A stretch of DNA of 64,000 nucleotides from an uncultured delta proteobacterium. Lineage in GTDB: Bacteria; Myxococcota_A; Polyangia; Polyangiales; B10-G4. Positions 16,062 to 62,027 of the stretch are shown piece by piece (position 1 is the stretch's first letter; each line of letters starts with the position of its first letter). The position numbers and the translations under genes were made by a program. Below the pieces are notes generated by a model that was not told the origin of the DNA, searched no databases, and saw only the letters and a program-made list of their open reading frames with translations. The stretch spans positions 64,001 to 128,000 of the forward strand of contig CAVSGI010000010.1 of assembly GCA_963727445.1 (NCBI GenBank). The letters run 5' to 3'.

Positions 16062-16953
16062 GTGAAAGCAATCTTGCTTCGATCGTTCGCCCTCTCGATC
16101 CTCCTGCTCGCTGGTTGCTCCCTCGACGGTCGGGCGATCGCGCCGGGGACGGGGCTCGGCTTCGACGCGTCGCGCGACACCGGGTCGCGAGACGCTGACG
16201 CCCCGGACAGCCGGACGGCGTCGGACGCCTCGTCGCCCGACTCCATGGTCGTGGCGGACGGAAGCGTCGGTCCCGCCGACGCAGCGCCGGACAGCACCGT
16301 CGTTGTCGACGGCGCCGTAGCGGCCTCGGACTGCGACGGCCCTCTCGCGGGGGCGATCTTCTGCGACGGCTTCGAGGATTCGGCGCTCGGCGCCTGGTCG
16401 GAATCTCATCCACGCGGCCGTCCAGGACACCTCCAACGTCTATCGTGGCGGCGGGGCGCTCCGCGTGGACGTCAGCACCTACGGCGACCACCCGCAGGCG
16501 GTGCGCTCGCTCGCGTCGATCACCTCGGGCGAGATCTACTTCCGCGCCTACTACTACTTGGAGAGCGCACGACTCGTCGATGTCACCTACATGGTCGTCG
16601 CGGAGTACCAGGTGCCCTTCAATCACGTGAGCCTGTCCACCTACACGGGTGGCGACTCCTACGCCTGGGTCGATGGCCCGGACATATTCATCCACAACCC
16701 CGCCGTCGGCGTGCCCACCGACCGCTGGTTCTGCACTCAGGCGCACGTTCACGTCGACGGCGAAAGCGGGAGCTTCACCAGTTGGGTCGACGGGACCATG
16801 GACGAGATGCAGACCGACGTCGACACGCTCCCCGCAGCTGGCTTCACCGCGCTCCAGGTCGGCGCGACCTGGACGGGTGGCGGGCAAGGCGCCTACCGGA
16901 TGTGGGTCGACGAGGTCGCGCTGGACGACGCGCCCATCCCCTGCACGTTCTGA
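16062..16953 (+). CDS. Secreted lipoprotein with Cip1/lectin-like beta-sandwich domain (frameshift near 16420)
   Basis: Lipobox LAGC, Asp/Ser linker, FCDGFED, IYFRAYYY, DRWFCTQ, MWVDEVAL...IPC. Confidence 0.6.
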
Positions 16954-16955
16954 GA

Positions 16956-17936
16956 TCAGTCGAGCACGAGGCGGAGCTCGGGCTCTCGCTCCCGCATCTC
17001 CTCGACCTCGGGGTGCAAGGCGTCGAAGACGCGAAGCAGTCGGATGCGGGTGCGGTAGAGGCCGCGGCCGAGGGCGGCGCATTGGCCGCCGCCGTGCACC
17101 GGATCGTCGACGCAGCCGGCCTGGTTCCAATAGGTCGCGACGTCGGCAGCCTCGAAGGCCCAGTCGCTGGTGATGGCGAAGCGCTCGTGGACGACGCGCT
17201 CCGGCGGGGGCGGCAAATCCACGGTGCCGGAGCGGATGGCGTCGAGGACGGCCTGGTCGAGGGTGTGGACGCCGCTCGTCTCGAGCACCCAAGCCCCCGA
17301 AACGACGCCCTCCGGGTTCTGCACCACGCGCACGTCGACGCGGTACCAGTTGGTGGGCGCGTTCAGGAGGTTGACCTGGTCCATCCACTCGAGCGCCGCC
17401 TGGGTCGCGGCGTCGAAGTGGTCGTTGGCGAGCTCGGGCGGCATCGCGCCGATCGGATCGATGGGCTTTTCGGGCCCGTTGCGGTAGCGGCCGAGCTCGT
17501 CGATCAAGCGCGCGAGGGGGTTCATCCCCGCGCGTCGTTCGCGCTCCGCCTCGGCCATGTCGGGGACGAAGGCGCGGCGCATGCGGCGACGCATCTCGAA
17601 GTACCAGCCGTCGACGTCTCCCGACGCCACGCGATCGTCGCGGATGCCCTGATCGAAGTAGCGCTCGAGCGCATCCTCGGCCCGCCCTCGTCGATCGAAG
17701 GGCTCGCGCGCGAGCGTCCAGCCCGCGGCCTCTGCGAGGGGGAGGGTGGGCAAGAGGTCGATGTCCTCGCCGCCTTCGCCACCGCCGGGCGCCTCTTCGG
17801 TGGGTGGGGGCGGCGCTTGGACGTCCCCATGTGCGTCGAGCAGACGGTCACCGGCCGGCCGCGTCTGGATCTGCGCCGCCGCAGGTGCGGCGAAGACCCA
17901 CATCACCACCGACGCCGACAGCAGAATCCTCCCCAC
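16956..17936 (-). CDS. Exported protein with a TonB C-terminal-like domain
   Basis: Signal peptide ending AAA-Q; VRVVQNPEGVVSGAWVLETSGVHTLDQAVLDAI resembles TonB_C. Confidence 0.55.
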   Translation of the reverse strand: MGRILLSASVVMWVFAAPAAAQIQTRPAGDRLLDAHGDVQAPPPPTEEAPGGGEGGEDIDLLPTLPLAEAAGWTLAREPFDRRGRAEDALERYFDQGIRDDRVASGDVDGWYFEMRRRMRRAFVPDMAEAERERRAGMNPLARLIDELGRYRNGPEKPIDPIGAMPPELANDHFDAATQAALEWMDQVNLLNAPTNWYRVDVRVVQNPEGVVSGAWVLETSGVHTLDQAVLDAIRSGTVDLPPPPERVVHERFAITSDWAFEAADVATYWNQAGCVDDPVHGGGQCAALGRGLYRTRIRLLRVFDALHPEVEEMREREPELRLVLD

Positions 17937-17967
17937 GTCGGTACGTTGCGCGAGGGCGGCGTCGAGT

Positions 17968-19635
17968 TCACGCCGCGCGGGCTTGCTCGAGGAGCTCGGC
18001 GGCGGCGGCGCGGGTCTTCTTGGTGACCCGGGCGCCGCCGAGCATCTGGGCGAGGGCGTCGAGGCGGGCGCGGCCGGACAGCGCCTGGACGCGGCTGACG
18101 GTGCGTCCCTGCTCGATCGCCTTCTCGACGTGGAAATGCGCGTCGGCGAAGACCGCGACCTGAGGCAGGTGGGTGATGCACAGGACCTGGCGATCGCGCG
18201 CGACCTCTTTGAGCTTCTTGCCGACGCGCTCGGCGACGATGCCGCCCACGCCGGTGTCGATCTCGTCGAAGACGTGCAGTCCCCCGGACTGGCGGTCGCT
18301 CAGGACCCGCTTGATCGCCAGGAGCACCCGGGAGAGCTCGCCGCCGCTCGCTACCCGCGAGAGCGACATCGCCGCTTCGCCGGCGTTGGGCGCCACCACC
18401 AGCTCGACGCGATCGGCGCCGGTCGGCCCCAGCGGCGCCTCGTGCACGGCGATCTCGAAGGTAGCCTGACCCATGCCGAGCGACTCGAGCTCCCCGGAGA
18501 TCGCCCGCGCGAGGCGCTTCTTGGCGCGCGTCCTGAGCCGATGAAGCGCCCGCGCCTTGTCGCGCGCCTCCGCTTCGGCCGCGGTCACCGCCTCTTCGAG
18601 CGCTTCTGCGTGCGCTTCGCGGCGCCCGAGCAGCGCGAGCTCCTCCCGCGCTTCGTCCCGCCGCGCGATCACCGCGGAGAGATCGCCCCCGTGCTTCTTC
18701 GACAGGCGCCGCAGCTGCCCCACGCGCTCGTCCAACCAGGAGAGACGCGCCGGGTCGGCGGGCGTCCGCCGCGCGTACGCGGCCGCTTCCCCCGCCACGT
18801 CCTCGATCAGCGCCCGCGCGTCGTCGAGCTGCGAGGCCCAGCTCCCGAGGCGCGCGTCGTGCCGGGCGGCCTGCGACAGCGACTCGGCGATGCGTGCGAG
18901 CGCGCCGCTGATGGACGCATCGCTCCCGAGGAGCGCGTCCTCGGCCCCCTCGGTCACCTGCATCAGCTGTTCGGCGTGGGCGAGACGCGCATGTTCCTCC
19001 TCGAGACGCACGTCCTCGCCTTCCTCCGGCGCGACCTCGTCGATCTCGCGCAGCACGAAGCGCAGGAAGTCCTCACGCTCGGCCCGGCCCGCGGCACGGC
19101 GCGAGAAGTCGGCGAGGGCGTCGCGTGCGAGAGCGAGGGCGTCGTGCGCGTCGCGCATCTCCTTCTTCAGATTCTCCGCGCCCGCGAAGGCGTCCAGGAG
19201 CTCGAGCTGCTGCCGCGGCTCCGTCAGCCCATGATGCTCGTGCTGCGACGAGATCGTCGCGAGACCGCGCGCGAGGTCCGCCAGCTGCCTCTGGCTCGCC
19301 AGGCGACCATCGAGGTATGCCCGGCTGCGACCTGTCGCCCGGACGATGCGACGGACCACAAGCTCGTCCCCCACGTCGAAGCCGGCGGCGACGAAGCGCC
19401 CCCGCACCTCGGGCGCGTCGGCGAGATCGAAGAGCGCCTCCACCTCCGCCGCTTCGGCGCCGGCGCGCACGAGCTCCGGCCGACTGCGCGCGCCGAGCAC
19501 CAGCTCGAGGGCATCGACCAGGATGCTCTTGCCCGCGCCTGTCTCGCCGGTCAAAACCGTCAGGCCGGGCCCGAGCTCGAGCTCGAGCGTGTCCACGATC
19601 GCCAGATCCTTCACCCGAAGACAGGTCAGCATCAC
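17968..19635 (-). CDS. recN: DNA repair protein RecN
   Basis: LTGETGAGKS Walker A, ASGGELSR signature, VFDEIDTGVGG, QVLCITHLPQVA. Confidence 0.96.
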   Translation of the reverse strand: MMLTCLRVKDLAIVDTLELELGPGLTVLTGETGAGKSILVDALELVLGARSRPELVRAGAEAAEVEALFDLADAPEVRGRFVAAGFDVGDELVVRRIVRATGRSRAYLDGRLASQRQLADLARGLATISSQHEHHGLTEPRQQLELLDAFAGAENLKKEMRDAHDALALARDALADFSRRAAGRAEREDFLRFVLREIDEVAPEEGEDVRLEEEHARLAHAEQLMQVTEGAEDALLGSDASISGALARIAESLSQAARHDARLGSWASQLDDARALIEDVAGEAAAYARRTPADPARLSWLDERVGQLRRLSKKHGGDLSAVIARRDEAREELALLGRREAHAEALEEAVTAAEAEARDKARALHRLRTRAKKRLARAISGELESLGMGQATFEIAVHEAPLGPTGADRVELVVAPNAGEAAMSLSRVASGGELSRVLLAIKRVLSDRQSGGLHVFDEIDTGVGGIVAERVGKKLKEVARDRQVLCITHLPQVAVFADAHFHVEKAIEQGRTVSRVQALSGRARLDALAQMLGGARVTKKTRAAAAELLEQARAA

Positions 19636-19833
19636 CGCTCCTCCGCGGGGCGAACGGCCCCACGACTCATCGACCTCAGACGCCTTCGGTTGCTCAGGAC
19701 TGACGGAGGACGACTCTGAACAGTTGTACAGTGCGCTGCGGAGCGCGGCAAGCTTTCCGGGCCGGTGCGGCCCTTGCTACCCTCCGGACGCGTCCCGCAA
19801 TTCCAGGGGCCTGCCATCCCCCCTCACCCCTCG

Positions 19834-21375
19834 ATGTCGCTGCTTCCTTCTCGCCTCCACGCCTTCGCCCTGGCGCTCTCGGCCGCCCTCACGCTCCTCC
19901 TCGCGGTGGGGGAGGCATCGGCGCAGACCCGCGTGGTCGTAGAGAATTTCCACGGTCCGCAGAGTGGCCGCGTTCGGGGATACGTCGTTCAAGCCCTCAG
20001 CAACGAAGGCTCGATCGAGATCGTGCCGCGCGCCGAGGTGGAGGCCGCCGCCGCGGAGCTGGGCTTGCGCGCCAATCGATTGCGTGAGGACGACTATCCC
20101 CAGATCGCCCAACAACTGAACGTCACGGCTTTCGTCAAAGGGCGGGTCAGCCGCCGGCGACGCCGCTGGTCCGCGGTCGTGACAGTGATCAACGGCGCCG
20201 ACGGCGCGACCCTCGGCCGCGAGCGCTGGGGTGGCCGCACGGTGTCCAGCCTCGGCGCCATCCGGCGCAACGGCTACCGCCGGCTCGAGCCGCATCTGTC
20301 GAGCGCCCAGTCCCCGGGCCCCGCGTCGAACCAGAACGACAACGCACAGGCCAACCCCAACCACTGGGCTTACGGCGGCGCAGAGAACGACGAGGGGTAC
20401 GACGACGAAGAGATCCCGGGCGAGGAAGACGAAGAGGAAGAGGACTCCGAGCCGGTCGATCCCGGCTCGGCCTTCGACTTCCTCACCATCGAGCTCCTCG
20501 GCGGCTTTCTGCATCGCGGGATGACCGCCAACGCGCGCGTCCTCAACAACGGCCGCGACCCCATGGGGCCGGCCGAGCTCGACGAGGTGCGCAGCTACAC
20601 CAGCGCGGGCCTCGGCGGCGGCGAGGTGGGCTTCCGCATGGGCTTCTTCCCCGGCGCGATCCCCGACGACCAACCCATCCCCTGGTTCGGCGCGATCTTC
20701 GAGCTCCGCCACTCCGTGGGCCTGACCTCGCGCGGATGCCCCCAGACGGGTCCCTGCACCACCGACCAGGATCGCATCGATGTCGGCACCGAGCAGTGGG
20801 CGATGTACGTCGGCGCCCAGGGTCGCTTCCGCTTCGGTGACAAGCGCGGCGCGCCGATGATCTGGGCCGACGTCGGCTACGGCATCTTCGGCTTCCTTCT
20901 GGATCCCGGCGCGCTCATGCAGCTCGAGCGCCCGAGCGTCATCCCGCCGATCCAGTACAGCTACATCCACCTCGGCGGCGGCATCAACTATGCCCTGGTC
21001 CCCATCTACTTCACCGCGGGGCTTCGCCTCGGCTACAACGCCGGCCTCGACGTCGGCCAGAACGCCCGCGACATCTGGGGACTGCAGACGGGGGGCTCGA
21101 GCGGTTTTCAGCTCGGCATCGATCTGACGACGGAGATGCCCTACATCGCCGAGGGCGTCTTCCTCGGACTGAGCTTCGAGTATTTCGTCTTCTCCACCGC
21201 GTGGCGCGGCCAGACGCGCTGCGTGGACCCCTCCACCGGCTGCAGCCCCACCGATCCCTGGGAGCCCTGGCCGTCCGATCCCGCCGACCCCGACGTGGTC
21301 ACCGGGGGGATCCAGGATCCGGTGAACGACAACTACATTCGCCTGTATCTGTCGATCGGGTACGCGTTTCGTTAG
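19834..21375 (+). CDS. Exported protein, probable outer-membrane beta-barrel with an N-terminal periplasmic domain
   Basis: Signal peptide ASA-Q, acidic linker, amphipathic strands, C-terminal LYLSIGYAFR beta-signal-like end. Confidence 0.6.
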   Translation: MSLLPSRLHAFALALSAALTLLLAVGEASAQTRVVVENFHGPQSGRVRGYVVQALSNEGSIEIVPRAEVEAAAAELGLRANRLREDDYPQIAQQLNVTAFVKGRVSRRRRRWSAVVTVINGADGATLGRERWGGRTVSSLGAIRRNGYRRLEPHLSSAQSPGPASNQNDNAQANPNHWAYGGAENDEGYDDEEIPGEEDEEEEDSEPVDPGSAFDFLTIELLGGFLHRGMTANARVLNNGRDPMGPAELDEVRSYTSAGLGGGEVGFRMGFFPGAIPDDQPIPWFGAIFELRHSVGLTSRGCPQTGPCTTDQDRIDVGTEQWAMYVGAQGRFRFGDKRGAPMIWADVGYGIFGFLLDPGALMQLERPSVIPPIQYSYIHLGGGINYALVPIYFTAGLRLGYNAGLDVGQNARDIWGLQTGGSSGFQLGIDLTTEMPYIAEGVFLGLSFEYFVFSTAWRGQTRCVDPSTGCSPTDPWEPWPSDPADPDVVTGGIQDPVNDNYIRLYLSIGYAFR

Positions 21376-21385
21376 GCGTGAGATC

Positions 21386-21418
21386 GGGCACGGGCACGGG
21401 CAGGGGCACGGGCAGGGG
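21386..21418. repeat. Hexamer tandem repeat GGGCA(C/G), about 5.5 copies
   Basis: gggcac gggcac gggcag gggcac gggcag ggg read directly. Confidence 0.9.
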
Positions 21419-21461
21419 AGCGATCGACATCCTCGCCGGTCGGCGTTATTAGACCCGCATC

Positions 21462-25798: not shown

Positions 25799-26740
25799 TT
25801 AGAAGTAGAAGACGCCGCCGAAGTTCATGAGCGCGCCGACCGAGGTGTTGGTGGTGCGGCCGGTGGGGTTGCCGAAGTCGTCGAACTCGACGAACTCCGG
25901 CTGCGAGCTGTCCGAGATGCGATGCCGGATGAGGGCGCGCACGTCGAGGTTCAGCGCGAACCAGCGCGCGATGCGCCACTCGATGCCGAGGCCGCCTTCG
26001 CCGTTGAAGTGGGCGAAGCTCATGTCATCGAAGCTGCCGGTGAAGCGGTTGATGCCGTTCGCCGAGCCCCAGCTGAGGCCGAGACCGAGCACCGCGTAGA
26101 ACTGGAGGCGATGCTGCGGGTTGAAGAAGAAGAGGGTGTTGATGCCGACCGGCATCTCCCAGCGGCTCAGGCCGTTGTAGTCGGTGCCGCTGTAGTAGCC
26201 GAAGTCGACTTCGAGGGCGAAGTGGCCGCTGCGCGGGCGGAAGCGCGGGCCGATGCGGAAGCCGCCCATCTGCACGTTGTTGCCGATGATGCCGGAGACC
26301 GAGGGATGGATACCGAAGCTCGGGCGTCGCGGCTGGCGCTGCTGCTGCACCTGCTGCACCTGCGGGCCCTGCTGGGCGCCGGCGCTGACCACCACCGTCG
26401 TCTGCGCCTGCGGCTGGGCGATGGGCTGGGCGACGGGCTGGCTCGGCTGAACGACGACCACCGGCGGCGCGGGCGCGGGGGGCGGGGGAGGGGGCGCCGG
26501 CTGCGCCGGCTGCACCACCACCACCTGACCCGAGCGAACGGGCGGGGCCACGCCGACCCGGACGCGGGTGCGGTTTCGCACCCGGACGCGGGCCTGGGCG
26601 TTGAAGGAGGAGCCGACGTTCACCGAGGCGCAAAACGCGTCATCAGGCGCGCACTGCGCCTCGGCTTTGGGGGCGGCCAAGAGGAGAAACCCAGCCAACG
26701 CGGGCAGGGTCAGGATGGCTGTCATGGGAAAGCGGCGCAT
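25799..26740 (-). CDS. Outer-membrane beta-barrel protein with Pro/Gln-rich N-terminal linker
   Basis: Signal peptide AEA-Q, amphipathic strands, C-terminal FGGVFYF. Confidence 0.75.
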   Translation of the reverse strand: MRRFPMTAILTLPALAGFLLLAAPKAEAQCAPDDAFCASVNVGSSFNAQARVRVRNRTRVRVGVAPPVRSGQVVVVQPAQPAPPPPPPAPAPPVVVVQPSQPVAQPIAQPQAQTTVVVSAGAQQGPQVQQVQQQRQPRRPSFGIHPSVSGIIGNNVQMGGFRIGPRFRPRSGHFALEVDFGYYSGTDYNGLSRWEMPVGINTLFFFNPQHRLQFYAVLGLGLSWGSANGINRFTGSFDDMSFAHFNGEGGLGIEWRIARWFALNLDVRALIRHRISDSSQPEFVEFDDFGNPTGRTTNTSVGALMNFGGVFYF

Positions 26741-26756
26741 CACGGAGGGACTCTTA

Positions 26757-29675: not shown

Positions 29676-30287
29676 TCATCGGATGGCTGGTGTCGAGGGC
29701 GGCTTCCGGAGGCGGCGGCGCGGCAGGAGGCGCGCGAGGAGCCCGACAGCGAGCACCAGCGCGAGCGTCAGCGTCGCCCAGCGCGGCGCGTAGGGGCCGA
29801 GGTAGAGGTGCAGGACCACCAGCGCCCCCGCGGCGTAGGAGAGCCGATGGAGCGGCTTCCAGAGGCGCACCCGCAGCGCACGGGTGAGCCGGGGGAAGGA
29901 GGTGATGAGCAGCGCGACGAGGATGGAAAGGGCGAGGAGCCCCGCGCGGAGGTAGGGCCAGCTCAGGACGCTCGCCCAGGCGTCTTCGAGGGGACCGCCG
30001 AGCGCGATGAGGGCGTGGAGGATGGCGAGCAGGGCCGCGCTGATCCCCAGCGGGCGCTGAAAGCGAACGACGCGGCGCGCTCTTCTGGCGAGTCGCGAGA
30101 GAGGCGTGAGCGACAGCGTCGCGACGAGGGCGACCGCTGCGCACCAGCCCACCGCGCGCGTGAGGAGATGATCGCGCAGGGCGGGCCATTCGGTCGCGCG
30201 TTCGGCCCAGAGCGCGGACGCCAGCACCGCGGCGACGGCCACGACGGCGACGTAGAGCGTGAGCGGCGGTCTCTTGCGACGCTTCAC
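29676..30287 (-). CDS. Ferric-reductase-like transmembrane heme protein (MsrQ-like)
   Basis: TLSLTPL, RPLGI...LH, LLITS, WKPLHRLSY...LH heme-ligand pattern. Confidence 0.8.
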   Translation of the reverse strand: MKRRKRPPLTLYVAVVAVAAVLASALWAERATEWPALRDHLLTRAVGWCAAVALVATLSLTPLSRLARRARRVVRFQRPLGISAALLAILHALIALGGPLEDAWASVLSWPYLRAGLLALSILVALLITSFPRLTRALRVRLWKPLHRLSYAAGALVVLHLYLGPYAPRWATLTLALVLAVGLLARLLPRRRLRKPPSTPAIR

Positions 30288-32482
30288 AGCATCTCCAGGA
30301 AGTAGACGAGGTCGGCCACCTCGGCGTCGCTCAGGTTCTCGGTGTCGCCGTGTCGATTCGCCGCGTCGCGATCGTGGATCACTGCCGTGAGATCTTCGGC
30401 GCGACCGTCGGTCAAGAAAGGGCCCCCGCGCGAGACGCCGATCAGCGATGGCACGTCGAGGATGGCGTCCGCGCCGAGCGCGGCGGCGCGGCCCGGGAAG
30501 AGCGAGCCGAGCGGATGCTGGCCGAGGTTGGTGAAGGCGGGCAAGGCGTGGCAGGTGGGGCAGCCGGCGCGTACGAAGACGTCGAGGCCGCGCCGCTCGC
30601 GGGGCAGATCGCGCTCGGCGTGCACACCCAGGCTCGGATTGCTCGGCAGCGCCTCCACGAACGCCTCGAGGGTGTGGGCGCGCCCGGGGGCCCGCCGGAG
30701 AAAGCCGCGGAGGAGCGTCCGCGAGAGGTGCTCGAGGTCGCGGATGCGCGGATAGCTTCCGTCGCGCAGATAGGGAGCCGTGCCCGCCACGCCGCGCACA
30801 CTCAGCGTGGGCGAAAGGCGATGCTCGCCGATGTTGCGCATCACGTGATCGGTGTCGGCGTGCAGGTGGCAGCTCTGGCAGGCGATGCCGCTCCGCGTCG
30901 ACTCGTAGAAGGTGCGCTCGCCCATCCGGCGCGCGAGCGCATGCTCGGACTCTTCGAGGAGCGCCTCGTCATCGGGCGCGAGGCGGATGAGCTCTTCGAG
31001 TGTCCCCGATGGATCGAAGAGCCCGATGCTTCCGTCCGCGGGCGAGGTGACCGCGAAGCTCCCGCCCTCGAAGGTGAATGTGGAGTGGGGCGCGGAGAGC
31101 TCCGGTGTGTCGATGATCTCGGGCCGCGGGCCGAGGCCCAGCGTCCAGACCTCCCAGGTTCCGGCGAAGGCGATCCGCGCCCAGCCCCCGAAGCCGAGCT
31201 CGATCCCCATGGGCGATCCGCCGCGGTCCACGTCGCCGCCGCTGGCCTGGCGCGACGAGCGGCGAGCGGTGAGCTCCTGGTCGACCACCGTGAAGGACGG
31301 CACGTCGATCGTCAGGAGCTGGTCCTGGACGAAGTGGTTGCCGTAGTGCGTGGAGCCATCCGCCCGGTAGTCGGTGGTGGCGATCATCGCGTGGCTTCCG
31401 TCGGGTGCGACCGCGAGGGTGACGGCGGGCCTGCCGAGCAGGAGCGTCTGCCGCCCTACGGGGGGCGGCGAGAGGTCGAAGCGCTCGAGAGTCGCGCGCT
31501 TCGTCGAGCTCACGAGGAGCGTGCGCCCGTCCCGCGCGAAGGCGAGCCAGTCCGCATCGATCGGCAGGAAGTCGCGCACCGAGCCCGCCTCCACGTCCAC
31601 CAGGAACACGCCGGGCTCTGGCCCATGGACCGCGACCGCGAGCGTTCCAGTCGCAGGCGCCGAGGCGACGCGCACCTGATGAGCGCTCAGCGGGATGCGC
31701 GCGAGGATCGTCTCGCTGAGGACGTCCACCACGAAGAGCATGTCCGTATGGCGATGCGCCACCGCGACGCGCCGATCGTCGACGAAAGCACAATCGGTGG
31801 GCGCGTCCCCGACGTCGATGCGCGCGACCAGGCCGCCCTTCTCCACCACAATCAGCTCGTCGGTCTCCTCGCTCACGGTCGCGGCGAGGCGCCTGTCCGC
31901 CGACCCGTGGAGCCAGCGCGGGTGTGGTCGGGGCTGAACGCCGACCGCGGGACGAAGGTGCGTCGCGCCATCAATCTCGAGCGCGACCTCGATGGGACCA
32001 TCGGCCGCCGGCGGCCCGTGGAGCGCGGGGTCGTAGGCGATCCGGAAGAGCCCGTGTCCGAGGGAGGTGCCGGCGGCGGGGTCCGCGCTCTCGCTCGCGC
32101 GGAAGAGGACGGTGCCGGCCGCCGGCGCGTGCACGTAGAAGGTCTGCGGGTGATCGAAGAAGACCACGGCGGGGAAGATCGAAGGGGTGTCTTCGAGCCG
32201 CCACCGGTCCTCCGCGCTCTCCGCGCTCCCCGTCAGCCCTTCGGTGTCGAGGAGGGTCTCGAAGCGCGAGGCGATGGAGACGAGGGGAAACGCCACCATC
32301 ACCGCCCCGATCCCGAGCCGTTGAAGACCCGAGAGCCCGAAGAGCGAGGGCCTGGCGATGGACAGTACGTTGACCAGGGCCCAGGCCAGGGCGTAGGCGA
32401 GCACCAGTGACCACACGGTCAGCTCGGGCATGAGCGCCCAGGCGACGAGCGTCAGGACGAGAATGGGGCCCTGGCGATGCAC
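30284..32482 (-). CDS. Membrane-anchored beta-propeller plus di-heme cytochrome c (CcP/MauG-superfamily-like) protein
   Basis: N-terminal TM segments, YVTN-like repeats (RIDVGDAP), CQSCH and CPTCH, TAPYLRDGS, PSLIGV...PFLTDG, DLVYFL. Confidence 0.8.
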   Translation of the reverse strand: MHRQGPILVLTLVAWALMPELTVWSLVLAYALAWALVNVLSIARPSLFGLSGLQRLGIGAVMVAFPLVSIASRFETLLDTEGLTGSAESAEDRWRLEDTPSIFPAVVFFDHPQTFYVHAPAAGTVLFRASESADPAAGTSLGHGLFRIAYDPALHGPPAADGPIEVALEIDGATHLRPAVGVQPRPHPRWLHGSADRRLAATVSEETDELIVVEKGGLVARIDVGDAPTDCAFVDDRRVAVAHRHTDMLFVVDVLSETILARIPLSAHQVRVASAPATGTLAVAVHGPEPGVFLVDVEAGSVRDFLPIDADWLAFARDGRTLLVSSTKRATLERFDLSPPPVGRQTLLLGRPAVTLAVAPDGSHAMIATTDYRADGSTHYGNHFVQDQLLTIDVPSFTVVDQELTARRSSRQASGGDVDRGGSPMGIELGFGGWARIAFAGTWEVWTLGLGPRPEIIDTPELSAPHSTFTFEGGSFAVTSPADGSIGLFDPSGTLEELIRLAPDDEALLEESEHALARRMGERTFYESTRSGIACQSCHLHADTDHVMRNIGEHRLSPTLSVRGVAGTAPYLRDGSYPRIRDLEHLSRTLLRGFLRRAPGRAHTLEAFVEALPSNPSLGVHAERDLPRERRGLDVFVRAGCPTCHALPAFTNLGQHPLGSLFPGRAAALGADAILDVPSLIGVSRGGPFLTDGRAEDLTAVIHDRDAANRHGDTENLSDAEVADLVYFLEML

Positions 32483-38600: not shown

Positions 38601-40259
38601 TCACGGCGTGCAGGTCACCGTGGCGTCTCGCGCCATCATGACCGGGTAGCCGCTGGTGTCCGCCGTGACCAGGACGTCGAAGTCCGTTGGGTGGGTCGCG
38701 AAGGCGCCGTGGAAGGGGCAGCTCCAGAAGCCCGCCACGCCGGAGAGCACCGGGTGGCTCGTGCCCACGGCGGTGCGGGTCACCGACGCGCAGGGGTTTT
38801 CGTACGAGCCGGAGATCGGCGTTCCGAAGACGGACGTCATGTTCTCGGGCGAGCCGTGGATCGCTGCGGAGTAGCCCGGTGAGTTGTAGAAGCTGCACCC
38901 GTAGGAGAAGTACAGGCTGGTCCGACCGCCGTCGGCGTTGCGCCCAAGCTCCTTGAGCCAGTTCGCTGCGGACTGGAAGAACGCGTTCGCGGCGGCGCCT
39001 CCGTGATAGTCGGGGTCACCGGCGAAGACCAGGACGCGGCCCGTGACGGCCGGGCCCCACGCGGCGATGGTGTCCTCGAGCGGGCCGAAGGTCGCGTCGA
39101 GGCTGCCGCTGCAGCTCGCGCCCCCGATCCAGATGATGTCGTACATGCCGAAGTCCGCCGTGGTGAGGGTGCGCCACATGGCCTCTGTCACCACCGTGAC
39201 CGTCGCACCCGCGCCCAAGCTGGTGGTCGCGGTCGTGCCGCCGGGGCTGTACACCAGGATCCGAGGCGTTCCGGTGTAGCAGCTGACGCCGCAGCTTCCG
39301 CCGGTGCACATGACCCCCGGGTCGCAGGTGACCCCGCAGCCGCCACAGTTGGACTCGTCGCTCGACACGTCCATCTCGCAACCGTTGGTCGGGTCCATGT
39401 CGCAGTCGGCCCAGCCGGTGTCACAGGTGAATCCACAGGCGCTGCCTGTGCAGCTCGCGGTGGCGTTGGCCGGGGCAGCGCAGGCGTTGCCGCACATGCC
39501 GCAGTTCATCGTGTCGCTGGTCACGTCGGTCTCACAGCCGGTCATCGTGTCGCCGTCGCAATCGCCGAGGCCGGCGGTGCACATCAGGCCGCACACACCC
39601 GCGCTACAGGCGCCGACACCGCCGTCTTCGTCGGGGCAGACCGTCGCGCACGCGCCACAGTTCATCGCATCGGCGGAGATGTCGACTTCGCAGCCGTTGG
39701 TCGCGTCGCCGTCACAATCGGCGTGCATGGCGTCGCAGGTGGAGCTGCATACCCCACCCATGCAGGCGGCGACGGACCCCGCGGGGACCGGACACGCCAC
39801 GGCGCAGCCGCCGCAGTTCGCCGGATCGCTCCCGGTGTCGATGCAGGCGCCCCCACAGGCGGTCTCGCCGGTCGCGCAGTCCGAGGCGCACGCGCCCCGG
39901 CTGCACACCTGACCGGAGGGGCACGCGTTGCCGCAACCGCCGCAGTTCATGGGATCGGCGTTGACGTCGATGCACGCACCGTCGCAGCTCATCTGGGTCC
40001 CCGGACAACCCGCGCCGCACACCCCGCCGCTGCAGAGCTGTCCCGGATCGCACGCGTTGCCGCAGCTGCCGCAGTTGGCCGCCGAGGTCATGAGATCGGC
40101 GCAAGCCGAGCCGCAGAGCGTCGCGGGCGCCGGGCAGCCCCCGCCGCCGGTGTCGGTCGCGCCGTCCAGAGGACCGCCGGCACGCCGGCCGCTGGCGCAG
40201 GCGGCGAGCAGCAAGAGGGCCAACGTCGCGATCCTGGCGCTACATCCGAACGAGCTCAT
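38601..40259 (-). CDS. Cys-rich repeat lipoprotein with a C-terminal globular domain
   Basis: Lipobox LAAC; repeated D..NCG.CG..C and DCDG...NGCE units typical of myxobacterial Cys-rich proteins. Confidence 0.85.
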   Translation of the reverse strand: MSSFGCSARIATLALLLLAACASGRRAGGPLDGATDTGGGGCPAPATLCGSACADLMTSAANCGSCGNACDPGQLCSGGVCGAGCPGTQMSCDGACIDVNADPMNCGGCGNACPSGQVCSRGACASDCATGETACGGACIDTGSDPANCGGCAVACPVPAGSVAACMGGVCSSTCDAMHADCDGDATNGCEVDISADAMNCGACATVCPDEDGGVGACSAGVCGLMCTAGLGDCDGDTMTGCETDVTSDTMNCGMCGNACAAPANATASCTGSACGFTCDTGWADCDMDPTNGCEMDVSSDESNCGGCGVTCDPGVMCTGGSCGVSCYTGTPRILVYSPGGTTATTSLGAGATVTVVTEAMWRTLTTADFGMYDIIWIGGASCSGSLDATFGPLEDTIAAWGPAVTGRVLVFAGDPDYHGGAAANAFFQSAANWLKELGRNADGGRTSLYFSYGCSFYNSPGYSAAIHGSPENMTSVFGTPISGSYENPCASVTRTAVGTSHPVLSGVAGFWSCPFHGAFATHPTDFDVLVTADTSGYPVMMARDATVTCTP

Positions 40260-52934: not shown

Positions 52935-52992
52935 ACCGGCCGGGAACCTATTTCCATCGGCCTTTCGGGGTCAAGCGCAGTACATAGGAGGG

Positions 52993-54268: not shown

Positions 54269-54284
54269 TGGCATGGGTGCTGCT
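54269..54284 (+). promoter_or_regulatory. Sigma54 -24/-12 promoter
   Basis: TGGCATGGGTGCTGCT (GG-N10-GC), then GGAGG and ATG at 54312. Confidence 0.6.
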
Positions 54285-54311
54285 GTGATGCCCTGCCCTG
54301 GGAGGACTTCC

Positions 54312-55304
54312 ATGGCCCGTGTTTTGACCCTGAGCACCCTCACCTTCGTCATCGCCGTTGCCACCGTTGGCTGCGGCGACTCGACCGTCACTGACACCGG
54401 TGTCGCGACAGACTCTTCCGTAGACACCAGCGTGGGCATGGACGCCACGCCCGATGGGATGGCGGACGCCACGCCCGATGGGATGACGGATGGGGCGATG
54501 GACGCCACGCCCGATGGGATGACGGATGGGGCGATGGATGCGACGCCCGATGGGATGACGGATGGGGCGATGGATGCCACGCCCGATGGGATGACGGATG
54601 CCATGGCCGACGGGGCGATGGACGCGACGCCCGATGGGATGGCCGACGGGGCGATGGACGCGACGCCGGACGGGATGGCCGACGCGTCGATGGACGCCAC
54701 TGCGGACGCCGTCGCAGACGCGATGCCGGACGCCATCGCGGATGGGGCGGTGGACACCGCGGTCTGTCCCTCGGGCTGCGACTGCGACATCGACTGCACC
54801 GGTCGCACGACGTGCCTCTGCGCCACGGGATGTCCGTGCAACATGCGCTGCACCGGCGGAACCACCTGCATCGGGACCTGCAGCGGCGCCGGCACTTCCT
54901 GCTACTACAACGGCACGGGCCGCTCGATGTTGGACCTCGCCTGCACCAGCTCGGCCACGTGCACCTTCGATGCGGCCGGCACCTCCGACGCCACCGTGGA
55001 CTGCAGCTCGATGGCGGATTGCTCGGTCGACGCCACCGGCTCGTCGGGGATCATGCTTGCATGTGACTCGGGCGCGGACTGCACCATCGACGCCACCGGC
55101 TCGTCGGACGTCATGATGAGCTGCAACGCCACCACCTGCGACCTCACCTGCGACGACGCCTCCTCGTGCGTCCTCGACTGCATGCCGAGCGCCACTTGCT
55201 ACCTGAGCTGCGGCGGCACCTCGACCTCCTGCGGCTTCGGAACCTGCGCCGCCCCGACCACCTGCAGCGCTACGCTGACGGTGTGCAACGGGACCTGCCC
55301 GTAG
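54312..55304 (+). CDS. Lipoprotein with Met/Asp tandem-repeat stalk and Cys-ladder C-terminal domain
   Basis: Lipobox TVGC, MDATPDGMTDGA repeats, CTxDATGxS repeats. Confidence 0.85.
   Translation: MARVLTLSTLTFVIAVATVGCGDSTVTDTGVATDSSVDTSVGMDATPDGMADATPDGMTDGAMDATPDGMTDGAMDATPDGMTDGAMDATPDGMTDAMADGAMDATPDGMADGAMDATPDGMADASMDATADAVADAMPDAIADGAVDTAVCPSGCDCDIDCTGRTTCLCATGCPCNMRCTGGTTCIGTCSGAGTSCYYNGTGRSMLDLACTSSATCTFDAAGTSDATVDCSSMADCSVDATGSSGIMLACDSGADCTIDATGSSDVMMSCNATTCDLTCDDASSCVLDCMPSATCYLSCGGTSTSCGFGTCAAPTTCSATLTVCNGTCP
54438..54700. repeat. Coding tandem repeat, 36-bp unit, about 7 imperfect copies
   Basis: atggacgccacgcccgatgggatgacggatggggcg and variants. Confidence 0.9.
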
Positions 55305-55330
55305 CGGGCATATCCACGACGGCGAGCCCG

Positions 55331-56126: not shown

Positions 56127-56198
56127 CGAAGACATGATAACACGGGGGCAACGCTCACCGGCCTTCGGCTGAGCGCAGGGCGCGCCGTCCTCCCCAGG

Positions 56199-57500
56199 CT
56201 ACCGCCGCGTGAAGCGGAGCACGTGCCGGTAGATGTTCGTCGGGTTCACCTGGCCCATGTTCCAGTCGTAGTCGGGGCCGTCGGGATCGGAGCTGTAGTT
56301 GTAGAGGATGATCTCTTCGGCGGTCTCGCCCTCGAGCCAGCCGGCGAAGCAGGTGTCGCCGCGCGACGGGAGGTCGAGGATGTAGGCGATGCGGCTCTCG
56401 CCCTGGACCCAGCGCCAGAGCGAGCAGCGCTTGGGCGCGGTGATGTACTCGTACTGGTTTTCGAAGGTCATCGCGAGGTGGTCGCCGGCGGTGCTCATCA
56501 CGTCGTAGTTGCCGGACTCGGTCACGTTGCGGCGGCCCACGAGATAGGCCTCGCCGTCGTGCCAGAACATCAGGGGCGAGTCGTACTTCTTCGGGTCGCC
56601 CACACAGCTCCAGTCCGTGATGTCGCTGGCGGGCGCCGTGCAGACCTTGCTGCCCCAGCCGAGGTCGTCCCCCGCTTCGTTTCGGATGACCCCGTAGAGG
56701 GTGCCGTCGTCGGCCAGAGCGAAGTCGGTCTCGCTGCCGCCGCCCATGGAGATGACGGGACGCGAGGGGTTCAGCGGGGTCCAGGTGATGCCGTCCGCGG
56801 TGGTGCGGAGCTCGATGGTGAGCGGCTCGCCGTCGGTGTAGATGTTTTCCCCGCCCGCATAGACGAGCATGTACGGCGTCCCGCGCTCCATCTTGGTGCG
56901 CCACGCGATGAAGCTGCCGGTGCCGATGTCGCCCAGGGGCGCGAGATCCGACCACGTCCCGTCCGCGGCGCGCATCGTGTACGAGACGCCCTGGGGCTCG
57001 AAGGCGGTGGGCGAGTCGCCGAGATTGGCCATGTAGAGGAAGAGCTGGTCACCGAGCGAGAGAAAGCGTGGCTCGCGGAGGTCGTGACCGACCGCGAAGC
57101 TCGTCTCGAAGTCCCAGGTGCGCTCGTCGTCGGTGGAGATGACGTACATCTCGACGTCGGGGGACGCGAAGTGGGTCGGGGCGGTGCGGAACGCGAGATA
57201 GATCCGGCCGTCGCTGTGGCGCACGACGTCGAGGTTGTTTCTGGCGTCTTGGAGCATGACCTCGGGCGGCAGCCCGTCGCCCGGGATCACCTGCCGGGTG
57301 TCGACGATCTCCACGTCGTGCAGGCCCGGCTCCGAGGGCGGTGGAGGCGGTGGGGGCGGCGGCACGTAGGGGCCGGTGTCCACCGCGGAGTCGACCGGCC
57401 CGTCGGGGGCCGCGTCCAGGGCCGCGTCCGTCGCGCTCCCATCGTCCCCGCAAGCCACGAGGAAGAGCACACAAGAGCCCAGCACCGCGAGTCGTCCCAC
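56199..57500 (-). CDS. Lipoprotein with sialidase/BNR-like beta-propeller
   Basis: Lipobox LVAC, Asp-box-like STDDERTW, ADGTW, TADGITW. Confidence 0.7.
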   Translation of the reverse strand: MGRLAVLGSCVLFLVACGDDGSATDAALDAAPDGPVDSAVDTGPYVPPPPPPPPPSEPGLHDVEIVDTRQVIPGDGLPPEVMLQDARNNLDVVRHSDGRIYLAFRTAPTHFASPDVEMYVISTDDERTWDFETSFAVGHDLREPRFLSLGDQLFLYMANLGDSPTAFEPQGVSYTMRAADGTWSDLAPLGDIGTGSFIAWRTKMERGTPYMLVYAGGENIYTDGEPLTIELRTTADGITWTPLNPSRPVISMGGGSETDFALADDGTLYGVIRNEAGDDLGWGSKVCTAPASDITDWSCVGDPKKYDSPLMFWHDGEAYLVGRRNVTESGNYDVMSTAGDHLAMTFENQYEYITAPKRCSLWRWVQGESRIAYILDLPSRGDTCFAGWLEGETAEEIILYNYSSDPDGPDYDWNMGQVNPTNIYRHVLRFTRR

Positions 57501-57549
57501 CCGCCGAAGATGGGAGCTTCCTCCGGGAGGCGCAAACGCCCGCCCCGGC

Positions 57550-58212
57550 TCAGCGCTCGACCAGCACCTCTGTGAGGGGCTTCTTGCCCAGATTCGGCAC
57601 CCGGCACGCGTCGGATGGGTAGCCCACCGGCATCAAGAGGTAGGGGCGCTCGTTGTCCGGGCGGCCGAGGATCTCCCCCAGGAAGCGCATCGGGCTCGGC
57701 GTGTGGGTCAGCGTCGCGAGGCCCGCGTGGTGCAGCGCCGTGATCAACATCCCGCTGGCGATCCCCACGGACTCGTTCACGTAATAGTTCCGCTCATGGG
57801 GCTCGCGGCCGTGCTTGTGGGCGAAGACGACGATCAGTGCCGGGGCCTCCTCGAGGAAGGGCTTGTGCTCGTCGGTGCCGATGGCTGCGAGGTCGCGCAG
57901 CCACTGCGCCGAGGCCCGTCCTCCATAGAAGGCGGCCTCCTCTTCTTCCGCGGCCACCCGAATGCGCTTCTTGAGGTCGGGATCGGTGACCAGCACGAAG
58001 GTCCAGGGCTGCTTGTTGGCTCCGCTGGGGGCCTGGGCGGCGGCGGCGATGCATTGGCGGACGACCTCGAGGGGGATGGGCTCGGCGGAAAACTCCCGAA
58101 CCGAGCGCCTCGAGCTCAGCTCGTCCCGGATCTCCATGGCCCGGTCGAGCATCTCGCGCTCCCCGAGGCGGCGGAAGGTCAGGGGGGAGAAGCTCGGGAG
58201 GTTGTCGCTCAT
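57550..58212 (-). CDS. Nitroreductase-family flavoprotein, iodotyrosine deiodinase-like
   Basis: RRSVREFS, APSGANKQPW, AEEEEAAFY, HKPFLEEAP, ESVGIASG, LTHTPSPM. Confidence 0.85.
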   Translation of the reverse strand: MSDNLPSFSPLTFRRLGEREMLDRAMEIRDELSSRRSVREFSAEPIPLEVVRQCIAAAAQAPSGANKQPWTFVLVTDPDLKKRIRVAAEEEEAAFYGGRASAQWLRDLAAIGTDEHKPFLEEAPALIVVFAHKHGREPHERNYYVNESVGIASGMLITALHHAGLATLTHTPSPMRFLGEILGRPDNERPYLLMPVGYPSDACRVPNLGKKPLTEVLVER

Positions 58213-58380
58213 GCCTCCTTATATGCCAGGGCGCCGTTTTGGTGACGCAGCCGACCTCTCGAGGTGCCGAGATCGCGGCAAACCCTGCGCCGCGGACCTG
58301 AAGATCGGGTGATCATTCGGGATCGTGGGTGCACAGCCGCTTCCCCCCACCATCGTTTTTCGAATCGTCACGCGACCGCG

Positions 58381-58408
58381 TTGACAGCCGCCCTTGTTCG
58401 CTTAACCT
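58381..58408 (+). promoter_or_regulatory. Sigma70-type promoter of pyrG
   Basis: TTGACA-N16-TAACCT. Confidence 0.65.
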
Positions 58409-58488
58409 CCGCCCCGTGCCGTACGCGCCATCCCACTTCGAGTGGACCCTGCGCATCGACGGCCGACTTGTCTCCGGACGCAGGGTGA

Positions 58489-60186
<1,698 letters not shown>

Positions 60187-60262
60187 GCGTCTCGCCTGAC
60201 ATCCATGTCGCGATCGGCGCAAGATGGCGTCTTTTTCCTCAGTGTTTTCAGCGACCGAACGT

Positions 60263-60278
60263 GGGCACGGGGGATGCT
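60263..60278 (+). promoter_or_regulatory. Sigma54-like promoter
   Basis: GGGCACGGGGGATGCT (GG-N10-GC) upstream of the Cys-rich lipoprotein pair. Confidence 0.5.
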
Positions 60279-60359
60279 TGTCCATGGGGTTCGCGCTTGA
60301 TTCGCGCGCGCGCCCCTGAGGTACTAGGATGCCCCGGCCTGTTCTGGGGAGGATTTGGG

Positions 60360-61169
60360 ATGATGAGGATGCTTCGCTTTTCCATGATGCTTGCCGCTGC
60401 CGCGCTTCTCTTCGCTTGCGGAGACGACGGCCGGATGACTACGGACGGTGGCGCGGACACGTCGGTTCCCGTGGACACGGGGACGACGAGTGACACCGGC
60501 ACCACGGCCGACACCGGCACGATGGCCGACACCGGCACGACGACCGACAGCGGCATGGGCGGCACCTGCGGGGGCTCCGCGTGCGACCTCGTGACCGGCG
60601 GTGGCTGCGGCGCGGGACAGAGCTGTCAGTTTCTCGCACCGATGATGGGCGCCGATCCCGAGGCGATGTGCGTGCCCGCCGGCACCGCCGGCGACGGAAT
60701 GCCTTGCATGAATTACATGGACTGTCAGGAGGGCTTTGCGTGCATCACCGCCGACGGGGCGATGGAGGGCACCTGCCAGCACTACTGCTGCCCGGGCGGC
60801 ACCGGCGCGTCGGCCGCCTGTCCCACCGGCCAGACCTGCTCCACCACCTTCATGGGCACCGATGTGGGCTTCTGCTCCTTCGCGGATGACTGCGACCCGG
60901 TCGGGATGACCGGCTGCATGGGTACCGAGGCCTGCTACCCCGGCCCGGACGGCACCTTCCAGTGCGCGACCCCCGGCATGCTCACCGAGGGCGAGACCTG
61001 CGAGACCTTCGTCAACGAGTGCGCCGCCGGCCTCGCTTGCTTGATGGGTCAGTGTCGGAAGCTGTGCGACACCGACAGCGGCATGGGCTGCGGCGCGATG
61101 CAGATGTGCACCGTCGGCCTCTCGGGCTTCGATACCCTGGGGGCGTGTGATCCGGTCGCGACCCCGTAG
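60360..61169 (+). CDS. Cys/Met-rich lipoprotein
   Basis: Lipobox LFAC, DTG repeats, two CD.V...C...C modules. Confidence 0.85.
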
Positions 61170-61199
61170 CTCGTCTCCCGGCTCCGCCGGGGATATGAT

Positions 61200-62027
61200 G
61201 TGACTCGCGTGAAGTGGACGCCGACAGCTCTCCCCCTCGTGCTCGCCCTCTGGGCGGCGGCGTGCGGGGGAGACGACGGTCATGGGGACGCCTCCGTCGA
61301 CACGGGCACCATGGACGGGACCACCATCGTCGATGGGGGTAGGACCGACAGCGGTACTCCGGGTGATGCCGGCCTGGACAGCGCGGTGCCCGACGCGGCG
61401 CCTCCTTCCTGCACCGGCGACTGCGATCCACGCGAGGGGGCTCCCTGCGGGGATGCTGGCGTCTGCGCGCTGGTCGCCGACGCGCCGATGTGCGCCGAGG
61501 CGCTGGGCACCAAGGCCGCCGGTGCCACCTGCGAGGCGGTGAGCGACTGCCTGCCGGGGCTCGCGTGCTTCATGCGTGCCGGCGGTGGCGTCTGTGCCGA
61601 CGTTTGCTGTCCGAGCGACGGCGTGTGTCCCGGCGACCAGCACTGCACCGGCGCCGGCATCCTCGTCGACGGCACCGAGACCGAGTGGTGGTCCTGCGTC
61701 GGCCTGCGCACCTGCGACGTCCTGCGGCCGGCCGAGGCCTGCGAGCGAGGGGAGGGCTGTTACATCGTCTCGACCGAGGGCGACACGGACTGCTTGCGTG
61801 CAGGAGCGGGAGAGGCGGGCGCCGATTGCGTCGATCAGAACGATTGCGCCTCCGGGTACTTTTGCGCGGGTGTCACCGTCGGGACCTGCGCGCGCATCTG
61901 CGAGATCGGCGCGACCAGTGGGCCGAGGGCCTGCCCCGATGGCGAGGGGAACTGCCAGGCGTATCCCTACTCGCCGGAGGGCACGGGTGTCTGCACGCGC
62001 GCCACGTCGGCGATGATGTTCAGATGA
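61200..62027 (+). CDS. Cys-rich lipoprotein, paralogous architecture to the upstream gene (start may be 61209)
   Basis: Lipobox AAAC, CDP...C..G..C modules, CC motif shared with 60360-61169. Confidence 0.85.
   Translation: MTRVKWTPTALPLVLALWAAACGGDDGHGDASVDTGTMDGTTIVDGGRTDSGTPGDAGLDSAVPDAAPPSCTGDCDPREGAPCGDAGVCALVADAPMCAEALGTKAAGATCEAVSDCLPGLACFMRAGGGVCADVCCPSDGVCPGDQHCTGAGILVDGTETEWWSCVGLRTCDVLRPAEACERGEGCYIVSTEGDTDCLRAGAGEAGADCVDQNDCASGYFCAGVTVGTCARICEIGATSGPRACPDGEGNCQAYPYSPEGTGVCTRATSAMMFR

Follow-up and report, generated by a model that had tools for sequence, protein, structure and literature searches.

Lysine-poor proteins are known from several settings. Halophile proteins are acidic and lysine-poor, and the periplasmic proteins of salt-out halophiles are acidic. 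The A chains of AB toxins that translocate from the endoplasmic reticulum are also lysine-poor. Passages of work on the M-protease of Bacillus KSM-K16 describe alkaline adaptation by loss of lysine with gain of arginine (PMC8153356), and excerpts on the glycoside hydrolases of Alkalitalea saponilacus give lysine depletion as a feature typical of alkaline adaptation (PMC13591233). For proteins of the ubiquitin system, extracts from a further article describe 'lysine deserts' that evade lysine-directed modification (PMC10169902). Here we analyze a lysine deficit in the exported proteins of an uncultured delta proteobacterium of the order Polyangiales. The deficit was noticed in a stretch of 64,000 nucleotides, positions 64,001-128,000 of contig CAVSGI010000010.1, which we call the window. 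It is real, strong and genome-wide, and it is specific to compartment, to lysine and to lineage. We found no account of a purge of lysine from the exported proteins of myxobacteria in a literature search that left subscription journals largely outside.

The source genome (G000) has 9.47 Mb in 27 contigs with 69% GC and is 85.6% complete; the window lies on its contig C10. The alanyl-tRNA synthetase of the window has 55% identity with its best named record, a Polyangiales metagenome-assembled genome. Genes were called with a purpose-written codon log-odds caller, giving 7,691 genes at a coding density of 85%. Proteins were labeled exported or cytoplasmic by our own heuristic rules for signal peptides, lipoboxes and hydrophobic or transmembrane segments, and not by SignalP or DeepTMHMM. 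In pooled comparisons 'exported' denotes signal-peptide proteins and lipoproteins together. The main measure is the ratio of lysine to lysine plus arginine, K/(K+R), which is insensitive to linkers that contain neither residue. Comparator genomes were sampled at 100-400 kb apiece, giving 9 to 63 exported proteins each, and were passed through the identical pipeline. They leave out the classical cultured myxobacteria (Myxococcus, Sorangium, Haliangium). Two samples, G025 (60 kb, 3 exported proteins) and the Rhizobacter G023 (60 kb, 9 exported), were too small and were set aside. Related genomes are non-independent samples wherever genomes are counted below.

The earlier note, made from the sequence of the window, had claimed that nine exported proteins are nearly free of lysine while cytoplasmic proteins use it normally, with three partial exceptions. 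A recount agreed at all nine coordinates. The nine proteins are as follows.

16062..16953, plus strand: lipoprotein gene with an acidic linker; no Lys beyond the signal peptide, provided that it is read across a frame switch
16956..17936 (counted over 16956-17909), minus strand: TonB_C-like exported or anchored protein; 1 Lys and 33 Arg in 317 residues
19834..21375, plus strand: signal-peptide protein of no known family; 2 Lys and 39 Arg in 513 residues
25799..26743, minus strand: signal-peptide protein with a beta-barrel-like C-terminal part; sole Lys within the signal peptide
30284..32482, minus strand: protein of 732 residues, hydrophobic at its N-terminus; 2 Lys, 59 Arg
38601..40259, minus strand: MXAN_6577-like cysteine-rich lipoprotein with D-x-M-N-C-G repeats; 1 Lys and 19 Met in 552 residues
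54312..55304, plus strand: lipoprotein of 330 residues whose tandem 12-residue repeats are rich in Met and Asp and whose C-terminal part is Cys-rich; no Lys, 4 Arg, 24 Met
60384..61169, plus strand: exported protein of 261 residues, rich in Cys and with a linker of the DTGT type; 1 Lys, 2 Arg, 20 Met
61209..62027, plus strand: Cys-rich lipoprotein; 2 Lys in 272 residues, one of them within the signal peptide

The partial exceptions and the cytoplasmic controls are these.

4635..6488, plus strand: lipoprotein, partial exception, with a weak F5/8 type C match; 3 Lys and 40 Arg in 617 residues
45724..47349, minus strand: exported VWA/YfbK-type protein, partial exception (PF12034 at 146 bits, with PF12450 and PF00092); 8 Lys and 27 Arg in 541 residues
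56199..57470, minus strand: lipoprotein-like protein, partial exception; 5 Lys and 24 Arg in 423 residues
8967..10103, plus strand: RNase D-like protein, cytoplasmic control (PF01612, HRDC); 25 Lys in 378 residues
17968..19635, minus strand: RecN-like SMC protein, cytoplasmic control (PF02463); 16 Lys and 62 Arg in 555 residues
21462..23840, plus strand: alanyl-tRNA synthetase, cytoplasmic control (PF01411 at 645 bits); 39 Lys in 792 residues
43417..43737, minus strand: YbaB/EbfC, cytoplasmic control (PF02575); 10 Lys in 106 residues

Pfam profiles confirmed the families assigned to the four controls. Pooled over the window, eight predicted exported proteins have 16 Lys in 3,261 mature residues, against 293 in 8,701 for 27 cytoplasmic proteins (Fisher p = 5e-24). 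One exception had been placed at 4635-7282; its 3 Lys stand for 4635-6488, but the end at 7282 enters a second open reading frame (ORF) in another frame. In the gene at 16062-16953 the coding frame changes near 16350-16390, where frame +1 takes over from frame 0 in the signal of GC content at third codon positions (GC3). Either the assembly has an indel here or the gene is broken; the part at 16465-16953 has 0 Lys.

Profile searches placed some of these proteins in families. The protein at 16956-17936 matches PF13103 TonB_2 with 29.3 bits (cut-off 22), and that at 38601-40259 matches NCBIfam NF041328 with 181.2 bits (curated cut-off 100) and Pfam Stig1 PF04885 with 61.8 (cut-off 24.1). The match of 25799-26743 to TIGR04565 OMP_myx_plus is weak and below the cut-off. 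The protein at 30284-32482 may contain a haem-c-type domain, given its similarity, below threshold, to models of MauG and hydrazine synthase (E = 2e-6 to 4e-3). The proteins at 16062-16953, 19834-21375 and 56199-57470 gave no match in the Pfam and NCBIfam searches. Elsewhere in the window, 12759-15520 holds fragmented glutamine-synthetase-like and acyltransferase-like genes, with Gln-synt_C pieces at 14385-14594 and 14591-14785 and an Acyltransferase piece at 13168-13380. The fragmented genes and two-frame ORFs may be due to indel errors in the assembly.

The pattern holds over the whole genome, where the four localization classes have the following pooled lysine contents.

Cytoplasmic, n = 3,581: 2.66% Lys; 7% of proteins have none
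Membrane, n = 1,801: 1.86% Lys; 6.2% have none
Signal peptide, n = 739: 1.00% Lys; 18.5% have none
Lipoprotein, n = 867: 0.59% Lys; 26.5% have none

The difference between exported and cytoplasmic proteins is highly significant (Mann-Whitney p = 5e-275), and a subset of 195 proteins with a strict lipobox has 0.53% Lys. The exported to cytoplasmic ratio of lysine content lies between 0.19 and 0.38 in each of eight separate 200-kb samples of the genome. Expressed as log2(exported/cytoplasmic), lysine is at −1.78, while Asn, Tyr, Phe and Ile, which also have AT-rich codons, stay within −0.16 to +0.26, which matches their behavior in other genomes. Exported proteins have 0.77% Lys and 6.84% Arg, against 2.66% and 8.72% in the cytoplasm. 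They are also acidic, with a median net charge per 100 residues of −5.1 for signal-peptide proteins and −8.9 for lipoproteins, compared with −2.7 for cytoplasmic proteins. Lipoproteins are Cys-rich throughout the genome (3.38%, against 1.30% for cytoplasmic proteins), and many begin in their mature form with C-G-D-D followed by Asp/Thr/Gly linkers.

Internal controls bear out the claim that the deficit is specific to compartment and goes beyond GC pressure alone. Within the same proteins K/(K+R) is 0.112 and 0.090 in the mature parts of the two exported classes compared with 0.263 and 0.217 in their signal peptides, the cytoplasmic value being 0.231. GC3 is 0.873-0.880 in every localization class, and the gap between exported and cytoplasmic proteins is present in every GC3 bin. 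Conservation was examined with 190 orthologue pairs between G000 and G001, a genome of the same genus, the comparison being made on 40 exported and 96 cytoplasmic pairs. Exported proteins have K/(K+R) of 0.08-0.11 and cytoplasmic proteins 0.19-0.50, over all identity bins. With conservation or GC3 matched, the exported value remains lower by a factor of 2.2 to 2.8. Weaker constraint on exported proteins does not, in this matched-identity test, account for the deficit. Within the cytoplasm K/(K+R) climbs with conservation, from 0.19 in the least to 0.50 in the most conserved orthologue bins, and with GC3, from 0.16 at GC3 <0.8 to 0.31 at GC3 >0.9.

It is the compartment of residence, not the route of export, that decides depletion. 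Candidate substrates of the twin-arginine translocation (Tat) route, identified by a heuristic motif (n = 43), have K/(K+R) = 0.091, against 0.102 in other signal-peptide proteins. A cause lying in the Sec route or in the site of folding was rejected since Tat-like substrates are depleted to the same degree. The periplasmic domains of membrane-anchored proteins (n = 97) have K/(K+R) = 0.123, and four Omp85-family proteins 0.08-0.14. We also rejected gene-level GC or foreign origin, given that GC3 is 0.891 in the 57 of 1,441 exported proteins whose Lys content is 3% or more, against 0.877 for the remainder.

The lineage specificity is seen on comparing other genomes, listed with cytoplasmic K/(K+R) before exported.

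G001, same genus: 0.256, 0.092
G014, same order: 0.170, 0.074
G016, same order: 0.189, 0.048
G009, same order: 0.323, 0.236
G002, same order: 0.187, 0.175
G003, same order: 0.258, 0.251
G008, same order: 0.357, 0.353
G040, same phylum: 0.420, 0.397
G036, same phylum: 0.378, 0.383
G057, same phylum: 0.390, 0.454
G035, same phylum: 0.392, 0.396
Ramlibacter (G021), GC-matched outgroup: 0.342, 0.346

The deficit is common to the genome of the same genus and some other families of the order; further relatives and Ramlibacter have none, and G009 is partly depleted. Ramlibacter provides the comparison with a GC-matched genome under the same pipeline, and its exported proteins show no deficit of lysine. 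Its GC3 is 0.93-0.96 (GC 0.694) and that of G002 is 0.89, while G001, which has the deficit, has 0.85. Because the genomes with the higher GC3 have no deficit and one with a lower GC3 has it, GC pressure alone fails as an explanation. GC3 does not predict the deficit across genomes or within the genome. The acid shift of exported proteins does not follow the deficit either. G016, with the strongest deficit, has an almost unshifted exported charge (D+E 11.0 vs K+R 9.2). The exported proteomes of G035, G040 and G057 are the most acidic (Asp 8.9-10.9%); there lysine and arginine fall equally and K/(K+R) is unchanged.

BamA serves as a probe that can be aligned across lineages. Its K/(K+R) is as follows.

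Depleted: G000 0.137; G005 0.10; G010 0.04; G013 0.03-0.05; G016 0.06
Non-depleted: G002 0.20; G007 0.27-0.29; G011 0.35-0.36; G017 0.32-0.33

The periplasmic POTRA part is likewise depleted. Depleted and non-depleted lineages are interleaved in the BamA tree, and the trait has therefore switched state several times. Among 141 BamA cluster representatives of at least 600 residues, 10 have K/(K+R) <0.10. For MXAN_6577-like sequences the corresponding number is 73 of 120, while 40 of 120 have a ratio of at least 0.3. From these counts the trait is recurrent, yet confined to a minority of lineages.

What replaces lysine was read from 23 BamA columns that have Lys in at least two of four non-depleted orthologues, giving 115 cells in five depleted proteins. 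These contain 35 Arg, 22 Lys, 12 Asp, 8 Glu and 1 Met. The total of Lys plus Arg is 88-108 in depleted and 79-99 in non-depleted BamA. Judged from this alignment, lysine is replaced mainly by arginine, and the total of basic charge in BamA is conserved. The share of AGR (AGA or AGG) among arginine codons is 0.033 in exported genes vs 0.045.

The earlier note had further proposed that exported proteins are often enriched in methionine, standing in for lysine or acting as a sink for oxidants. The enrichment is found in three of the nine window proteins (3.4%, 7.3% and 7.7% Met), but exported proteins show no rise over the genome. Pooled Met is 1.72% and 1.90% in the two exported classes vs 2.07% in the cytoplasm (medians 1.65% vs 2.0%), and 27 of 1,606 exported proteins contain at least 5% Met, compared with 1.9% of cytoplasmic proteins. 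The impression of enrichment arose because two of those 27 sit 6 kb apart in the window. The Met-rich proteins there are lipoproteins rich in Cys and in Asp/Thr/Gly whose tandem repeats carry Met, and the methionine excess is a local family effect. In the Lys-free lipoprotein at 54312-55304 a 36-bp tandem repeat (54464-54600, within the region 54440-54742) is present in 3.8 copies with 97% matches. It encodes a 12-residue unit of Met, Asp, Gly, Thr and Pro, which we take to resemble Met-rich metal-binding repeats. The gene at 60384-61169 has an 18-bp repeat at 60474-60555.

Replacement of lysine by methionine was not seen on alignment of orthologues, the BamA lysine columns having Met in just one cell and Arg in 35 of the 115. 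The Met positions of the depleted BamA proteins mostly align with Met or Leu. For the motifs DPMNCG, DAMNCG and DTMNCG, in which the earlier note had placed methionine at exposed polar positions, we counted the residue before NCG in 359 motifs from 119 homologues of 38601-40259. It is mostly Ala (104) or Asn (82), followed by Leu (24), Thr (23), Ser (21), Arg (19), Lys (18), Gly (18) and Met (16). Methionine therefore does not occupy the place of a lysine of relatives in this protein. Homologues of one window protein came mainly from records named Polyangiales, Polyangiaceae or Myxococcales. Among homologues of the DxMNCG protein mean Met is 1.45% when Lys is <0.5% and 0.9% in the Lys-richer group, and the 3.44% of 38601-40259 itself is beyond the 95th percentile (3.15%) of 120 sequences. 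Taking the genome-wide values, the BamA columns and the NCG motifs together, we rejected methionine as a lysine substitute or oxidant sink in any general sense.

A secreted lysine-specific protease or amine-reactive chemistry used in predation had been suggested as the agent against which exported proteins are protected. The search for amine oxidases found four lysyl oxidase lipoproteins, though no copper amine oxidase in any of 21 genomes. The four matches to lysyl oxidase PF01186 in G000 all lie outside the window; 14 control genomes have none. They score 125.7, 125.0, 119.2 and 37.2 bits (cut-off 20.4) and are the loci L081-L084.

C21:129682-130998
C9:875839-877098
C6:430788-431831
C10:851801-853129

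All four have lipoprotein or signal N-termini, with lysine totals of 1, 4, 1 and 4. The HxHxH copper site (H192, H194 and H196), K218 and Y254 of the lysine tyrosylquinone (LTQ) cofactor are invariant in all four, on alignment to LOXL2 (PDB 5ZE3). In the C21 copy the single lysine is at the position of the LTQ cofactor in that alignment. By these residues the four lipoproteins look intact and are candidate lysine-directed enzymes. Six genomes of the order have a lysyl oxidase match of at least 90 bits (G000, G009, G010, G013, G014 and G016), of which five are depleted and G009 partly so. G017 has a weak match and is not depleted. In the order, two of seven genomes with no match are depleted (G001 and G005), and outside it none of five is. 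We also found 80 metagenome loci that carry a lysyl oxidase homologue, 22 of which have enough genes to judge. At four of the loci (L259, L260, L261 and L274; GC 0.73-0.74) exported K/(K+R) is 0.005-0.02, i.e. 1 to 5 Lys per 190-300 basic residues, with cytoplasmic neighbors at 0.12-0.20, a purge far beyond that in G000. Lysyl oxidase is associated with the deficit, and the causal direction could be the reverse. As a necessary or sufficient cause it was rejected, given the depleted genomes with no match and the non-depleted loci with a homologue.

Our best reading, which we hold tentatively and at somewhat less than even confidence, is that exposed amino groups of lysine are selected against outside the cytoplasm, with assistance from GC bias. 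Lysine would be selected against in folded domains beyond the cytoplasmic membrane, i.e. in the periplasm, the outer membrane, at the surface and in secreted proteins. There the exposed epsilon-amino group would be open to attack, both in the envelope and beyond it, by chemistry or enzymes directed at lysine. Arginine would take over most lysine sites, a change of AAG to CGN or AGG being cheap under GC-biased mutation, and lysine would remain mainly where it is irreplaceable, such as the cofactor lysine of the cell's own lysyl oxidases. The four copper/LTQ lysyl oxidase lipoproteins might themselves be the hazard, or else a weapon or cross-linker made safe by the lysine-poor envelope. We infer both the selection against the amino group and its agent. 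A more specific version, which we think quite improbable, is that the lysine-poor envelope acts as self-immunity that permits lysine-directed chemistry, against prey or in cross-linking of the matrix, in some GC-rich Polyangiales-like myxobacteria, the lysyl oxidase lipoproteins being the candidate. This would be a proteome- and compartment-wide counterpart of a toxin-immunity pair.

Several observations weigh against selection on exposed amino groups. An M35 Lys-N protease (PF14521) had no match in G000; the control genomes also had none, so this is a weak negative. Among S1 proteases (PF00089) there were 20 matches, 19 of them tied to a called gene, and a Lys-only signature of the Lys-C type was found in none; these were judged by the specificity residue and not against solved Lys-C structures. 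One of the 19 has the trypsin-type Asp189, and enzymes of this type cleave after Arg as well as Lys. Tyrosinase, found in one of the 21 genomes, and copper amine oxidase were rejected as a shared agent. Two depleted genomes, G001 (completeness 86%) and G005 (95%), gave no match to lysyl oxidase, and at the 22 judged loci the ratio of exported to cytoplasmic K/(K+R) is <0.6 in 9, 0.6-0.7 in 3 and at least 0.8 in 10. Periplasmic parts are depleted, and an agent acting only beyond the outer membrane cannot explain all of the deficit. In polytopic membrane proteins the short predicted outer loops are not depleted (K/(K+R) 0.21, against 0.19 for inner loops), although the orientation rule used is weak, with an in/out ratio for Arg of only 1.5. 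Between G000 and G001 exported lysines are kept in 48% of cases vs 61% for cytoplasmic ones, and thus the residual lysines are not all essential. Lastly, all strongly depleted genomes have GC of at least 0.67 (0.68-0.74 in the sampled stretches, 0.67-0.70 at the BamA loci), and GC bias may be required or is at least a co-factor.

Some of these points also fit GC-biased drift from lysine to arginine where the need for lysine is relaxed. The two residues would be almost interchangeable outside the cytoplasm, and strongly GC-biased mutation or gene conversion would erode lysine there, cytoplasmic lysine being held by function (binding of nucleotides and nucleic acids, solubility) and lineages differing by effective population size or nitrogen economy. 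We consider drift somewhat unlikely. Every strongly depleted genome is GC-rich, exported lysine is less conserved than cytoplasmic, and the total of Lys plus Arg in BamA is maintained. The fall of cytoplasmic K/(K+R) from 0.50 to 0.19 as conservation falls shows that erosion exists. That AGR codons are not in excess in exported genes fits an old equilibrium, and the extreme metagenome loci at 0.005-0.02 are near a pure mutational equilibrium, for which the expectation is our own estimate. Yet Ramlibacter and G002 have high GC3 and are not depleted while G001 has lower GC3 and is, and the 2.2- to 2.8-fold gap persists at equal conservation and GC3. In any case the interleaved BamA lineages demand an additional factor specific to lineage.

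A further rival is adaptation of the extracytoplasmic proteome to the habitat in a cell whose cytoplasm is kept buffered, alkaline pH favoring arginine, where lysine loses charge, and salt favoring acidic, lysine-poor surfaces; on balance this is unlikely. Small ions would affect both periplasmic and outer parts, as is found, and the exported proteome is strongly acidic. The cited passages on M-protease, with its exchange of lysine for arginine (PMC8153356), and on lysine depletion as an alkaline-typical feature (PMC13591233) point in the same direction. Short pieces at low depth with 95-100% identity to the window were present in one wetland and one salt-marsh sequencing run. The two DNA runs share 0.16 and 0.05 of the sampled words, with pieces mostly 90-99% alike and a few identical; no RNA run was listed among the matching runs. 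Those shares are small, and such labels do not indicate high pH. Further, the lysine deficit is uncoupled from the acid shift (G016 vs G035, G040 and G057), arginine is not raised in exported proteins (6.84% vs 8.72%), and, by the weak orientation rule, depletion does not extend to the predicted outer loops of membrane proteins. An artefact of wrong-frame ORFs, mis-predicted signal peptides or a few expanded low-complexity families is extremely unlikely and largely refuted. Gene calls and localization are heuristic and the assembly has frame breaks, but exported genes have the codon-position GC of real genes (GC3 0.882 vs 0.524 at second positions), and Omp85 proteins and orthologue pairs are depleted. 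The eight 200-kb samples agree, and the same pipeline gives no deficit in Ramlibacter and seven other genomes.

If selection does drive the deficit, one amino acid has been purged from an entire compartment, about one fifth of the proteome, in some bacterial lineages and not in their close relatives. There would then be an unrecognized hazard for extracellular lysine, or a gain from avoiding it. The comparison of K/(K+R) in exported and cytoplasmic proteins is a simple genomic marker with which the cause could be traced over thousands of genomes, and the intact-looking lysyl oxidase lipoproteins offer a testable lead on the role of bacterial lysyl oxidases. There are practical consequences too. 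Proteomics with trypsin or Lys-C, and amine-reactive labeling or cross-linking, will under-sample the exported proteins, and composition-based localization predictors trained on model bacteria will behave differently here. Exported enzymes free of lysine are handy scaffolds for site-specific amine chemistry.

Among the systems introduced at the outset, one close likeness, judged by the excerpts cited, is with the secreted enzymes of alkaliphiles. As in these, mature exported proteins have fewer lysines, arginine is the preferred base, and the effect is limited to the outside of the cytoplasm. Unlike the enzymes in those excerpts, the deficit here covers some 1,600 predicted exported proteins including the housekeeping BamA, and it is patchy among relatives. 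Arginine is not raised (exported Arg in Ramlibacter is 6.69%), acidic residues are not lowered, and nothing found here points to an alkaline habitat. The exported proteins of G000 resemble those of halophiles in being acid-shifted and low in lysine, but across the sampled genomes the acid shift and the lysine-specific deficit are uncoupled. The four lysyl oxidase homologues share with animal LOX and LOXL2 the HxHxH copper site and the LTQ Lys and Tyr; they differ in being lipoproteins of a bacterium, with linkers rich in Asp, Thr and Gly, C-terminal parts rich in Cys, and no SRCR domains. As in lysine deserts, so far as the extracts describe them, and in AB toxins, lysine is replaced and arginine kept, so that a lysine-directed enzyme has no target. 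There the effect belongs to individual proteins or regions and to the ubiquitin system of eukaryotes, whereas here a whole bacterial compartment is affected.

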